From assembly GCF_003018255.1 (NCBI RefSeq), contig NZ_CP027440.1: a stretch of 64,000 bases of DNA; one strand, written 5' to 3'. The position numbers and the translations under genes are program-made. Positions 15,265 to 61,280 of the stretch are shown in pieces. The DNA comes from Escherichia coli. Lineage in GTDB: Bacteria > Pseudomonadota > Gammaproteobacteria > Enterobacterales > Enterobacteriaceae. The first letter of the stretch is position 1. Every line of letters begins with the position of its first letter. Below the pieces are notes generated by a model. The model was not told the DNA's origin. It saw only the letters and a list, made by a program, of their open reading frames with translations, and made no database searches.

Positions 15265-15437
15265 GATGAGCATTCAGATAGTGGTTCACGCGCACGGGTT
15301 GCGCACCGCCGGAGTAAGGATTTACTGAGGCTAGCGACGCCATCATAACGAGCAAAAAGTGCGATCGTCAAAGAAGAATCGTGAGGAAATGCTGCATTGC
15401 TGACATTTACGCCAGCAATGCAGCGCAAAAGAACTTT

Positions 15438-19544: not shown

Positions 19545-19760
19545 GGCGCAAGGAGCGCGCAGGGGGCGGCCAATCGCCGCCGCCCCCTGCACCCCCGGGC
19601 TCTGGCGAACAAAATCGCCGCTGCGCGGTGCCCTCGGCTTATCCCTTACGGCTACCGGGTCGGGCGCGAGGTAACATCCCTGTAAAACGCGCCCTCAGCC
19701 CACATCCATGTGGGCTGCCCCGGCCTTCAGGGAACGCCTCGGCGATTTTGACGCCACCAA
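19545..19760. repeat. GC-rich intergenic element made of several perfect hairpins (possible boxC/BIME-like repeat or structured RNA)
   Basis: perfect 10-bp stem AGGGGGCGGC/GCCGCCCCCT (about 19561-19588), perfect 10-bp stem CAGCCCACAT/ATGTGGGCTG (about 19696-19717), plus GGCGA..TCGCC and GGCG..CGCC mini-hairpins; lies between yohP and dusC. Confidence 0.4.
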
Positions 19761-32982: not shown

Positions 32983-33030
32983 CGCATCCGGCATTTGGCA
33001 CCGATTGCCGGATGCGGCGCATCCGGCAAT
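32983..33030. repeat. REP-like palindromes between preA and mglC
   Basis: CGCATCCGGCA...TGCCGGATGCGGCGCATCCGGCAA. Confidence 0.55.
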
Positions 33031-43303: not shown

Positions 43304-43329
43304 GAAAAAGCCCTCTCGGTTGAGAGGGC
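43304..43329 (-). terminator. rho-independent terminator downstream of lysP
   Basis: minus-strand hairpin GCCCTCTC-aacc-GAGAGGGC followed by U5 run, about 20 nt after lysP stop. Confidence 0.7.
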
Positions 43330-43350
43330 TTAGCAAGGAAGCGAGGAAAC

Positions 43351-52273: not shown

Positions 52274-52313
52274 TTGCCGGATGTGACGCTTAATAAGCGC
52301 GTACATCCGGCAA
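52274..52313. repeat. REP-like palindrome between yeiL and psuT
   Basis: TTGCCGGATGTGACGCTTAATAAGCGCGTACATCCGGCAA. Confidence 0.45.
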
Positions 52314-55797: not shown

Positions 55798-55916
55798 TTG
55801 AGGAAATAACCTTAGTGTTTGATGAAAGTTTCAGGTTTCCACTAAAAGATAAAACCATTTAAATTCATAAAATTACATTCACAAACCGGTCATTCTCTTT
55901 GCGCGCATCAAATGTT

Positions 55917-55941
55917 CCAGGGCAGGAAATTTCTGCCCTGG
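55917..55941 (-). terminator. hairpin immediately downstream of fruA stop (weak terminator or RNA stability element)
   Basis: 9-bp stem CCAGGGCAG/CTGCCCTGG with 7-nt loop; only a short U tract follows on the minus strand. Confidence 0.4.
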
Positions 55942-55954
55942 AACACACCTTTTA

Positions 55955-57662: not shown

Positions 57663-58601
57663 TCAGTTAAAAGGTTGTAAGTCGACGCGCGCCATCATTG
57701 CGGCCAACTGCGGACGATCGGTAATACCCACATTGCTTTGACTTACCGCCAGGGCTGCAACAGCTGTCGCCAGACGCAGTGTGTGTTCACTGGATTCACG
57801 CATCAGCAAGCCATAAATCAGGCCACCAACCATAGAATCCCCTGCGCCAACGGTGCTTACGACATCGACTGACGGTGGTTTGGCGATCCATTCGCCGGAG
57901 GCATTAACCCAAAGCGCGCCTTCGGCACCCAGTGAAATAACGACATGCGCGATACCTTGTTCACGCAGCGCATGCGCAGCTTCAATCACATCTTTCATTT
58001 CAGGCAGTTTACGGCCTGCCCAGATTTCCAGCTCGCGGCGGTTAGGTTTCACCAGCCACGGTGCCGCTTTCAAACCTGCTACTAACGCTTCACGGCTACT
58101 ATCAAAGATAATGCAAGGACACTGACTACGCAGGCGAGTCATCCAGTCGGTGAACGCTTCCGGGCTGACGCCTGACGGTAAGCTTCCGCTGACACAGACC
58201 ATATCGAACTGACCGAGCCAGCTCAGAGAATCAGTCACAAAGCGTTCCCAGTCGGCGGGGGTAACGTCAAAACCCGAGAAGTTGAAGTCGGTCACTTCGC
58301 CGTCTTTTTCCGTCAGCTTAACGTTAATTCGGGTGCGCCCCTGTACAACCTGGAAACGGTTGGCAATGCCCAGCTCGCTGAACAGTTGCTGAAAACCATC
58401 CTGATTGTCTTTACCGAGGAAGCCACCAACGGTGACATCAATTCCCAGGTCTTTTAATACTTTGGCCACGTTGATGCCTTTACCCGCCGCATGCAGACCG
58501 GTGGTTTTCACCAGGTTCACTTCGCCGCGTTCAATTTCCGGGCAGAAACCAACAAGGTCATAAGCCGGATTAAGGGTGATAGTAGCAACACGTCTGCTCA
58601 T
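57663..58601 (-). CDS. fruK: 1-phosphofructokinase FruK
   Basis: 312-aa PfkB-family ORF (GAGDSMVGG motif). Confidence 0.95.
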   Translation of the reverse strand: MSRRVATITLNPAYDLVGFCPEIERGEVNLVKTTGLHAAGKGINVAKVLKDLGIDVTVGGFLGKDNQDGFQQLFSELGIANRFQVVQGRTRINVKLTEKDGEVTDFNFSGFDVTPADWERFVTDSLSWLGQFDMVCVSGSLPSGVSPEAFTDWMTRLRSQCPCIIFDSSREALVAGLKAAPWLVKPNRRELEIWAGRKLPEMKDVIEAAHALREQGIAHVVISLGAEGALWVNASGEWIAKPPSVDVVSTVGAGDSMVGGLIYGLLMRESSEHTLRLATAVAALAVSQSNVGITDRPQLAAMMARVDLQPFN

Positions 58602-59731
58602 TATGCGCCCTCCCCAAGACCAGCAGCGATAGCGTCGCCGATTGCTTTCAGCGCCTGTTCAGCATCTGCACCCTGGGCGGTAAAGCGTAGGCGATGACCT
58701 TTCTTAACGCCAAGTGCCACAACTTTCATCAGACTACGTCCGTTTGCCGGTTTGCCGGTACCATCAAGGTTTGTCACGGTAATATCACTGTTAAATTGTT
58801 TAATGGTATTGACCAGCATGGTACCTGGACGAGCATGCAGGCCGTGTTCATTGCGCACCACAAACTCCGCGCTTAACACGTCGTCGGTCGGCGCATCATC
58901 GCTGGTCAGCAGCGCCAGCAACGTTGCCGCATCCGCTTTCAGCAAGCGGTCAGCTTTATTGTCGAGTAACAAATCAGCGAGACGCTTAAGAACCGCAATG
59001 GGCTGATCGTCATTCATCGCCACACTCACCAGCATGGCTGCCGTTTCGCCGTCCACATCAAAAGCATTTGCCGCACGGCTTACCGCAATCGCGCTACGCA
59101 GATTGCCTTCGGCGCTATCGCTCAGCCAGATACCCTGCCCGAGGTTCAGCGGTTGTTCATTGATGGCTTTGGTGACGAAAGTGGCGTCAACTGCCCCCGC
59201 TTCTTTCAGACGCGCAGCGTTCAGCGCCTGAAGAGTCAGCAGATCGCTGGCGACGATATCCAGCGTCAGCATTTCGTTGTCGAGCTTCAGCTGCTCACTC
59301 TGCTTTTCGCCCATCAGCAATGCGCGAAGTTCTTCTGCTGTTGTTGCTGACTTCAGTTGTTCAGCAACGGAATCATCGCTCAGTACGTGGGTCAGCTGGC
59401 GTAGCAGGCCCAGATGTTCATCCGAGCTGGCAGCAATACCGATCGCCACGTACGCTACCTGGCCGTCACCCCAGGTGACGCCTTCCGGGAACTGAAATAC
59501 CTGAACGCCGGTTTTCAGCACCTGATCGCGGGTGTCGGTAGTGCCGTGTGGAATAGCAATACCATTGCCGAGGAACGTTGAGGTTTGCTGTTCGCGCGCC
59601 AGCATGCCATTGACGTAGCCTTCAGCTACATTACCGGCCTGCACCAGCGCCGCAGCGACCTGGCGAATCGCCTCTTCTTTGTCTCCGGCCTTTTCGCCCG
59701 GATGGATGTCCTGTACGGATAACTGGAACAT
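58601..59731 (-). CDS. fruB: PTS fructose-specific EIIA/FPr fusion protein FruB
   Basis: 376-aa ORF with N-terminal IIA(Fru) and C-terminal HPr-like domain (GLHARPG); 1-bp overlap with fruK. Confidence 0.95.
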
Positions 59732-59745
59732 AGTTCTCCTCTCTT

Positions 59746-59766
59746 GCTGAATTGAAACGATTCAGC
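59746..59766. promoter_or_regulatory. Cra (FruR) operator-like palindrome in fruB leader
   Basis: GCTGAATTGAAACGATTCAGC, 15-35 bp upstream of fruB ATG. Confidence 0.55.
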
Positions 59767-59817
59767 TTCTATGAGAAAAAAAGCGCCAACCTGGCTTAGG
59801 GTTAAAGACAAGATCGC

Positions 59818-59833
59818 GCTGAAACGTTTCAAG
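59818..59833. promoter_or_regulatory. Cra (FruR) operator-like site in fruBKA promoter
   Basis: GCTGAAACGTTTCAAG matches the Cra half-site pattern TGAAAC/GTTTCA. Confidence 0.6.
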
Positions 59834-59925
59834 AGAGCATAATACTTTTGTTTCAGCACGCAAGGAAAGCCGTAAAGTTATGAGCAAAAGTTTGATGTGC
59901 TGCACAATTTTTTGTCATTTTTCCT

Positions 59926-59958
59926 AATTGCTGATGGGAAAATCCGTTATCAGCAATT
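59926..59958. promoter_or_regulatory. 10-bp perfect inverted repeat in fruB/setB divergent intergenic region
   Basis: AATTGCTGAT-N13-ATCAGCAATT; no adjacent T-run, so more likely a protein-binding site than a terminator. Confidence 0.3.
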
Positions 59959-60098
59959 TCATTTCAGCAGCGTCAGCAGCCAATCAGCAACAGTGAAATG
60001 GCATTTTGATTATTCGTGGCGCTTTTGATTTCGCTGTCTGTTTATTTTCTGACAAGCAGCGTAAACTCCGCGTCTTCCTCTTCCAGTGATCGACCAGC

Positions 60099-61280
60099 AT
60101 GCATAACTCCCCCGCAGTCACCAGCGCGAAATCGTTTGACCTGACCTCGACGGCGTTTTTAATCGTTGCCTTTCTCACCGGTATTGCGGGCGCTCTGCAA
60201 ACCCCGACACTCAGTATTTTTCTTACCGATGAAGTACATGCCCGTCCGGCGATGGTGGGATTCTTCTTTACCGGCAGCGCTGTCATTGGGATTCTGGTGA
60301 GTCAGTTTCTCGCCGGGCGCTCTGATAAGCGCGGCGATCGCAAATCGCTGATTGTCTTTTGCTGCCTGTTAGGCGTGCTGGCCTGCACCCTTTTTGCCTG
60401 GAATCGCAACTACTTTGTTTTGCTATTCGTTGGCGTCTTTCTTAGCAGCTTTGGCTCGACCGCTAACCCGCAAATGTTTGCCCTTGCCCGTGAACATGCC
60501 GACAAAACCGGACGTGAGGCGGTGATGTTCAGCTCTTTTTTACGCGCTCAGGTTTCACTGGCATGGGTCATTGGCCCACCGCTGGCTTATGCCTTAGCGA
60601 TGGGTTTCAGCTTTACGGTAATGTATCTGAGCGCAGCGGTAGCGTTTATTGTTTGCGGCGTGACGGTGTGGCTGTTTTTACCGTCAATGCAAAAAGAACT
60701 TCCGCTGGCGACCGGCACGGTTGAAGCGCCGCGCCGTAACCGTCGCGATACGCTGCTGCTGTTTGTCATTTGTACATTGATGTGGGGCTCGAACAGCCTG
60801 TACATCATCAACATGCCGCTATTTATTATCAACGAACTGCATCTTCCCGAGAAACTGGCCGGTGTGATGATGGGGACCGCCGCCGGGCTGGAAATCCCGA
60901 CCATGTTGATTGCCGGATATTTCGCCAAACGTCTGGGTAAGCGTTTCTTAATGCGCGTTGCTGCCGTGGGTGGCGTCTGTTTTTACGCAGGAATGCTGAT
61001 GGCGCATTCACCTGTCATTCTGTTGGGCTTGCAGCTGCTAAATGCTATTTTTATTGGCATTCTGGGTGGCATCGGGATGCTCTATTTTCAGGATTTGATG
61101 CCCGGTCAGGCAGGTTCAGCCACCACGCTCTATACCAATACGTCGCGCGTGGGCTGGATCATCGCAGGATCAGTGGCGGGCATCGTCGCCGAGATCTGGA
61201 ATTATCACGCTGTGTTCTGGTTTGCGATGGTGATGATTATCGCCACTCTGTTTTGCTTACTGCGGATTAAAGATGTTTAA
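60099..61280 (+). CDS. setB: MFS sugar efflux transporter SetB
   Basis: 393-aa ORF with 12 TM segments; divergent from fruB. Confidence 0.9.

Follow-up and report, generated by a model that had tools for sequence, protein, structure and literature searches.

What is the perfect 10-bp inverted repeat that lies between fruB and setB, and which protein, if any, reads it? The window analysed here, the whole 64-kb stretch of DNA, comes from Escherichia coli: of 5426 complete E. coli genomes, 5413 match its positions 59700-60130, where this stretch is flanked by annotated fruB and setB genes. In the list of open reading frames fruB is found on the minus strand (58601-59731, start codon 59731-59729) and setB on the plus strand (60099-61280); fruB carries this annotation in the 5413 E. 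coli genomes and in K-12, and setB is likewise annotated in E. coli genomes and K-12. The two genes are divergent and are separated by a spacer of 367 bp. Since K-12 MG1655 differs from the window at only 5 positions of this spacer, none of them inside the inverted repeat, which is identical in K-12, knowledge gained with K-12 is applicable to the window. For comparison, the fruB locus was taken from 80 Enterobacteriaceae species, in 72 of which setB is the divergent neighbour, with a nearly constant spacer length. Offsets were counted over 73 sequences, which take in the 72 other Enterobacteriaceae species with setB as neighbour, and a larger set of 81 sequences also includes species in which setB is missing or truncated. 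The genome scan for the fruB locus yielded Enterobacteriaceae only, and the protein search Escherichia and Salmonella only.

The initial annotation of this DNA had placed two near-palindromic Cra-type sites in the spacer and had linked them to the known repression of fruBKA. Both sites are real and are the published operators fruBdistal and fruBproximal, compared here through the K-12 allele (PMC11157272). The distal operator, O1 (TGCTGAATTGAAACGATTCAGC, 59745-59766, the minus strand reading GCTGAATCGTTTCAATTCAGCA), is conserved in 72 species, and the proximal operator, O2 (GCTGAAACGTTTCAAG, 59818-59833), shows at least 95% identity at every position across species. With a weighted consensus score of 12/13 each, they fit the Cra consensus better than any other sequence of the 64-kb window. 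The literature describes the Cra sites of fruB as lying downstream of the transcription start, in the 5' UTR, and O2 overlaps the start predicted here. While a promoter scan found no consensus promoter at fruB, we infer from a CTTGC conserved across species in the alignment, and from spacing, a core promoter on the minus strand at 59836-59863, with a -35 element TTGCGT (59863-59858), a 16-bp spacer, a -10 element TATGCT (59841-59836) and a start near 59829. Between these two elements the minus strand (59857-59850) also carries a perfect left half of a Cra site, GCTGAAAC, which is 50-70% conserved across species. Further upstream, the CRP site TTTGA-TGTGCT-GCACA (59891-59906) is centred at about -70 from the predicted fruB start, and both of its half-sites are conserved in all species; O1, O2 and the CRP half-sites are near-invariant in the species alignment. 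Genomic SELEX and reporter work indicated that a single CRP site in the fruB-setB spacer activates both fruB and setB (PMC3105977). A GATC (Dam) site at 59812-59815 (GATCGCGCTGAAACG) lies 2 bp from O2, and therefore Cra occupancy might affect its methylation.

The inverted repeat itself is present as described in the initial annotation, AATTGCTGAT-N13-ATCAGCAATT, its arms (59926-59935 and 59949-59958) being complementary at 10/10 positions around a 13-nt spacer, GGGAAAATCCGTT (59936-59948). The accompanying remark that no T-run follows it was also borne out: the next bases are TCATTTCAGC, a terminator scan of 59650-60200 was empty, and an intrinsic terminator was rejected. Because the repeat spans about -97 to -129 from the predicted fruB start, it lies in DNA that would be transcribed from neither predicted promoter. 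A search of the window for perfect inverted repeats with arms of 10 bp or more and loops no longer than 20 nt yields 22 overlapping matches at about 10 loci, versus 1.9 +/- 1.4 in dinucleotide shuffles, and at this shuffle rate one such repeat is expected about 0.01 times in a given 367-bp spacer. The repeat is unexpected in the spacer, yet on its own it is neither decisive nor overwhelming evidence. The other perfect repeats of this length in the window are found at 15391-15426, 19559-19590, 32983-33030, 52274-52313, 55913-55945, 2105-2130 and 43308-43331; one of them is a 12-bp repeat, GCTGCATTGCTG-N10-CAGCAATGCAGC, that also contains TTGCTGA, and the rest are a G+C-rich CAGGGGGCGGC stem, two REP-like GCCGGATG palindromes, a stem-loop directly after fruA and two short G+C-rich stem-loops.

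Stronger evidence than the repeat is provided by the pentamer GCTGA, or TCAGC on the opposite strand, of which the spacer has 9 copies where about 1.75 would be expected. Five of these copies fall within 55 bp (59930-59988) and form the densest cluster in the window; a scan of the rest of the window and of 103 kb of additional K-12 DNA found no comparable GCTGA cluster. The fruB reading frame (58601-59731, minus strand) also holds 17 sense-strand GCTGA, which at 15 per kb is the highest value among the 40 reading frames of the window and about twice the 8.1 expected from permutation of synonymous codons, and in other genera these pentamers are kept at synonymous positions with a frequency of 0.80, versus 0.31 for other 5-mers. 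This excess was not used as evidence because the orthologues of fruK, fruA and setB show a similar one, with observed/expected ratios of 1.4-2.6 in both orientations, and much of it seems to reflect a general bias of sequence context.

Within E. coli the repeat is widespread. The 55-mer at 59912-59966 occurs exactly in 2730 E. coli genomes, and its K-12 allele, which differs at 59915 only, outside the repeat, occurs in another 2527; the repeat is intact in at least 5257 of the 5426 complete genomes (at least 96.9%). One site per genome was found in 5345 E. coli genomes, and the pattern with up to 2 mismatches occurs once in the window; a repeated palindrome of the REP/BIME type was rejected on the basis of this single place per genome. 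The 12-mer ATTGCTGATGGG occurs twice, at 59927-59938 on the plus strand, where it covers most of the left arm and the start of the repeat spacer, and at 59310-59321 on the minus strand, where it forms the fruB codons Leu-Leu-Met-Gly; this second copy may be a coincidence.

Across the Enterobacteriaceae, what is conserved is a series of short boxes, of which the two arms of the repeat are the first two. Box A, the left arm (59926-59935, plus strand, core GCTGA at 59930-59934), has its TTGCTGA conserved at 70-100%; GCTGA lies 23-25 nt past the CRP site in 61 of the 73 sequences, and the first GCTGA is found at this offset in 64 of the 81-sequence set, to which species without setB or with a truncated setB are added. 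Box B, the right arm (59949-59958, minus strand, TCAGC at 59950-59954), is represented by a TCAGC at +42 to +46 from the CRP site in 35/73 sequences, from genera that include Citrobacter, Salmonella, Kosakonia, Pluralibacter and Atlantibacter. Box C (TTCAGCAG, 59963-59970, reading CTGCTGAA on the minus strand) has its TTCAGC conserved at 95% or more, with TCAGC at +55 to +58 in 66 of 73 sequences. Box D (GTCAGCAG, 59972-59979, reading CTGCTGAC on the minus strand) follows 9-11 bp after box C, with TCAGC conserved at 90-100% and found at +65 to +68 in 59/73 sequences. A fifth copy, box E (ATCAGCAA, 59983-59990, minus strand), occurs at this offset mainly in Escherichia and a few other species. 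All five E. coli boxes contain GCTGA, box A pointing one way and boxes B to E the opposite way, and an array comprises 3-5 copies. Counted from the predicted fruB start, box A is centred at about -103, box B at about -123, box C at about -137, box D at about -146 and box E at about -157. When the copies are oriented alike the consensus is tTGCTGA[A/C]Gc. The DNA between the boxes varies freely: the GCTGA/TCAGC pentamers are conserved at 90-95% or more at fixed offsets from CRP, whereas their flanks are 10-50% identical to E. coli, and the spacer of the repeat is not conserved, with 0-70% identity to E. coli per position.

The initial annotation had made its proposal depend on conservation of the inverted repeat in this family. 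Outside Escherichia the perfect repeat fails in this respect, but its core persists, box A being near-universal and box B present in about half of the species. The right arm and the repeat spacer align poorly outside Escherichia, and the left-arm core TTGCTGA is kept almost everywhere. The perfect 10-bp symmetry, with the AATT extension and a full-match box B, is limited to E. coli, E. albertii and one Escherichia sp., while only TGCTGA...TCAG(C/T)A is present in E. whittamii and Escherichia sp. E1V33. Other palindromes are formed by boxes A and B elsewhere, such as GCTGACGC-N7-GCGTCAGC in Citrobacter and TTGCTGAA-N11-TTCAGCAA in Kosakonia. In E. coli the pair makes a perfect 10-mer because the two facing copies agree in the base that follows and both have the consensus flank (ATT). 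On the evidence of this alignment, the repeat does not appear as a free-standing unit and is best described as boxes A and B of a box array.

About 80 of the 5426 complete E. coli genomes have a divergent haplotype without a 55-mer of the K-12 type. In one example, E. coli SCPM-O-B-8794 (L003), box A reads GTTGA instead of GCTGA, and the segment is about 40% divergent over about 50 bp between near-identical flanks and resembles E. whittamii and Escherichia sp. E1V33. The equivalent of 59912-59966 in this and two further genomes (L004 and L005) looks like a stretch that is recombined or hypervariable. Deletions that shorten the distance from the CRP site to box A measure 11 bp in Lelliottia and Yokenella (L044, L045, L055), close to a whole helical turn, and about 20 bp in Klebsiella, Raoultella and an Enterobacter-labelled isolate (L031, L035, L039, L047), near whole helical turns. 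These deletions hint at a face-of-helix constraint relative to CRP, a hint that is suggestive only, and the helical periodicity of the box positions was not significant (Monte Carlo p of about 0.2), a result that, like the GTTGA haplotype, weighs against binding at the boxes. Spacers of the Klebsiella type end in an everted pair, TCAGC-tttt-GCTGA.

In seven species, belonging to Phytobacter and its relatives, Siccibacter and one "Enterobacter" species, setB has been replaced by unrelated genes or truncated (loci L053, L056, L058, L075, L079, L067 and L073). In L053 a gene resembling short-chain dehydrogenases now adjoins fruB, in L056, L075 and L079 the new neighbour is a gene that begins MNFALLH..., and in L073 setB is truncated. 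All seven species have the CRP site and boxes A, C and D at the usual offsets, with diverged sequence between the boxes. Because the array is kept where setB was replaced, it belongs with fruB and not with setB. The initial annotation had suggested that the repeat may bind a different regulator controlling setB or fruB; a protein site is still the most sensible kind of element, but it is not specific to setB, as the array is kept without that gene. The setB side has three strongly conserved blocks. The first, TGAAATGGCATTTTGATTATTCGTG, lies at 59994-60018, and its TGAAAT part is also kept in most species without setB. The blocks CTGTTTATTTTCTGA and AGCGTAAACTCCGCGTCT, proximal to setB on the plus strand (60037-60076), are lost where setB is lost, and they may contain a setB promoter, with a possible -10 element TAAACT at 60062-60067, within AGCGTAAACTCCGCGTCT. 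Located between the two predicted divergent promoters, the array is not expected to be transcribed.

Could the repeat instead be a functional hairpin, formed either by the DNA as a cruciform or by a leader or small RNA as a stem-loop? As a single strand of DNA it folds at -8.9 kcal/mol, with a z-score of -4.2 against shuffles, and in some genera the A-B pair extends inward rather than outward, as in the Citrobacter palindrome; the stem in the window is A+T-rich at its base and closes a loop of 13 nt. However, RNAalifold on 28 species retained only an invariant 5-bp pairing between boxes A and C, which has a covariation term of -0.07 and shows no compensatory change, the box flank positions showed no covariation except one that follows phylogeny, and Rfam returned chance matches only (E above 2). 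Moreover, box B is absent from half of the species, no T-run is present, and the stretch lies upstream of both predicted promoters. This reading is already largely refuted and we regard it as very improbable. A small open reading frame running across the boxes was rejected because the box spacing varies by 1-2 bp between species. Neither RNA-type nor terminator features are found at the array. It would be less far-fetched, but still improbable, that the perfect 10-bp palindrome arose in the Escherichia lineage by neutral accident and does nothing by itself, and that any conserved function resides only in boxes A, C and D. The restriction of the AATT extension and of a full-match box B to E. 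coli, E. albertii and one Escherichia sp. would fit such an accident, as would the unconserved repeat spacer and the expectation of one or two perfect 10-bp repeats by chance per 64 kb. Against it, the repeat is intact in at least 96.9% of the 5426 E. coli genomes, box B is found again, at an unchanged offset, in several distant genera, and both arms fit the general box consensus, flanks included, which is the expected product of selection on two boxes. The repeat is probably a previously undescribed, putative protein-binding part of the fructose-operon switch rather than a hairpin or an accident, and that the candidate array as a whole acts as a protein-binding element at the DNA level we consider likely.

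Several known sites were compared with the repeat and set aside. A CRP site (TGTGA-N6-TCACA) was rejected as its identity since half-site and spacing differ, the real CRP site being that at 59891-59906. Elements of sigma-70, -54, -28, -E and -32, as well as sites for a second CRP, FNR, IHF, Fis, MlrA, PurR, CytR and YpdB, were compared by eye with their consensus sequences, and none fits in a conserved manner.

If a protein binds the array, the choice between Cra, in a half-operator or looping mode, and another regulator is roughly even. The initial annotation had called the repeat not Cra-like. This holds for the geometry, which is un-Cra-like, but not for the sequence: both arms contain GCTGA, and this pentamer is the outer part of the Cra half-site GCTGAAWC. 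The box pentamer is the outer half-site part of the published Cra consensus, gcTGAAtCGaTTCAgc, the genuine Cra operator of epd has a left half identical to the box consensus GCTGAAGC, and O1 begins with a full box, TTGCTGAA. The perfect left half-site GCTGAAAC in the predicted fruB promoter likewise speaks for Cra. Furthermore, the array travels with fruB, which counts in favour of Cra as the binder, and the fruB operon was the first operon known to be repressed by Cra. Atomic force microscopy (AFM) of Cra and FruK on fruB DNA revealed higher-order complexes and raised the possibility of FruK-bridged looping between operators; Cra itself behaved as a dimer, which counts against a Cra reading (PMC11157272). 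No full Cra operator, a 16-bp near-palindrome GCTGAAWCGWTTCAGC with a central CG, was found in the array in the 73 sequences, the best weighted score being 10/13 compared with 12 for O1 and O2; in the window array the best match is 8/13 weighted, box A giving GCTGATGGGAAAATCC. The boxes have no central CG, no right half and no partner half-site 6 bp away. The in-vivo Cra motif, ctgaAtCGaTtcag, carries most of its information in the centre, and this centre is absent from the boxes, which keep the outer GCTGA and may have either A or C as the following base. Nine other Cra-controlled K-12 regions (pykF, ppsA, pfkA, tpiA, aceB, pck, ptsH, epd and icd) have no box cluster, so that such a cluster was rejected as a general property of Cra promoters, and the literature found on fruB describes two Cra operators only. 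The missing Cra centre, the A/C base, the lack of boxes at the other Cra promoters and this two-operator literature together make a separate regulator about equally likely.

Under that alternative the boxes would be the operator array of a different regulator acting beside CRP on fruBKA and perhaps on setB, with the E. coli palindrome as its best pair of sites, an arrangement that would resemble MalT boxes or CytR half-sites around CRP sites. We consider this a serious possibility, if still short of probable. The boxes have an 8-10 bp consensus of their own, tTGCTGA[A/C]Gc, with G at +2 in 78% of the copies of A and D, which departs from the Cra profile; their mixed orientations and distances, 32 bp from A to C and 42 bp from A to D, are unsuited to a dimer of the LacI type, and other Cra promoters are without such arrays. 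In addition, further proteins bind the fruB-setB spacer in in-vitro screens. The strongest gSELEX peak of FlhDC lies at this spacer (intensity 82, against 54 for fliE) and the mRNAs of fruBKA and setB fall in an flhD mutant, while fruBKA is among the listed targets of PlaR. We know of no E. coli regulator motif, and found none in the literature, that matches TGCTGAMG. The FlhDC consensus (AAYGSSNNAAATAGCG-N10-12-inverted) misfits the boxes by inspection, and a FlhD4C2 box, with two 16-bp arms AAYGSSNNAAATAGCG 10-12 bp apart and conserved A1, A2, G4 and A9-A13, was rejected by eye: the repeat arms share only AAT.GC.GA with it, the AAATA core is absent and the distance between the arms is about 10 bp too short. 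Moreover, the boxes persist in Klebsiella and Raoultella, which are not known to be flagellated. The FlhDC box listed in the gSELEX work for the fruB/setB peak (GGCGTTTTTAATCGTTGCCTTT CTCACCGGTATTGCGGGCGCT) maps inside the setB coding sequence, at 60152-60194 of the window, which is at odds with the genome position printed beside it; with coordinates converted here, the centre of the peak is near 59866. The PlaR box (ATnTGAAACnnnGTTCAnTT) resembles the Cra operators and not the repeat, and was rejected. As neither the window nor 103 kb of other K-12 DNA holds a second box cluster, the regulon of a separate regulator would be tiny.

Our preferred reading, which we hold tentatively and somewhat short of even, is that Cra is the binder of a protein-binding element linked to fruB. 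Three to five copies of the tTGCTGA[A/C]Gc box would act in double-stranded DNA just beyond the CRP site of fruBKA, as a control element kept by selection throughout the Enterobacteriaceae. Cra would read the boxes non-canonically, as good left half-sites without a partner, that is, as pseudo-operators like lac O3, and they would be occupied only while a Cra dimer is held nearby. The holding contact could be Cra on O2 or O1, either direct or bridged by FruK. This would produce a loop with the CRP site and the promoter inside it, and repression would become tighter when fructose-1-phosphate is lacking. While the boxes, their conservation and their linkage to fruB are observed, we infer protein binding, the identity of the binder and looping from them. 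Our confidence refers to the statement as a whole, and it includes some of the weight given to an accidental palindrome, a reading that disputes the palindrome only and not the array.

A broader proposal, which we regard as rather doubtful, is that every enterobacterial fructose operon carries a phased TGCTGA array, read either by an unassigned regulator or by Cra in a half-site mode, perhaps with FruK as the bridge. If it is true, the textbook view of Cra control by two operators is incomplete at its founding target. fruBKA is the operon that defined Cra (FruR) and still serves as the reference for the biochemistry of Cra, FruK and fructose-1-phosphate. It is among the best-studied operons, and no description of the array was found for it; the kind of object, a cluster of transcription-factor sites, is ordinary. 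Reporter constructs and in-vitro fragments that end at the CRP site would omit part of the switch. If Cra reads the array, it would supply the upstream operator for the looping model raised by the FruK work, and if another protein does, fructose uptake would have a second specific input.

The boxes can be compared with several known systems. The Cra operators of fruBKA are the closest, being in the same spacer and operon and sharing the outer pentamer GCTGA(A), O1 even starting with a full box. Real Cra operators, however, are 16-bp near-palindromes with a central CG and half-sites 6 bp apart, situated in the 5' UTR, whereas the boxes are single half-sites that stand 9-34 bp from one another, in mixed orientation and upstream of the promoter. 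The auxiliary pseudo-operators of lac, O3 upstream and O2 downstream, with looping by LacI, offer a likeness to the logic proposed here: in a system of the LacI/GalR family, a weak site of which one half is good lies beyond the CRP site, some 100 bp upstream of the main operator. They differ in that LacI is a stable tetramer while Cra was dimeric in AFM, and in that O3 is a recognisable full-length operator, which the boxes are not. CytR, described by Pedersen and Valentin-Hansen in 1997 in nucleoprotein complexes with CRP, reportedly reads direct or inverted half-sites of variable spacing next to CRP, so that a LacI-family protein on short half-sites beside CRP has a parallel there, but its half-site is GTTGCATT (core TGCAA) and not TGCTGA, and it sits between two CRP sites where only one is present here. 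In the malE-malK divergent region, MalT boxes (GGGGAKGAGG) are combined with CRP sites, and MalT is an activator with a known regulon. We know of no arrangement of this MalT type for fructose. The likeness lies in several short asymmetric boxes in both orientations, together with CRP, in a divergent control region for sugar transport, and the difference in the sequence of the MalT box, GGGGAKGAGG, compared with that of the TGCTGA box.
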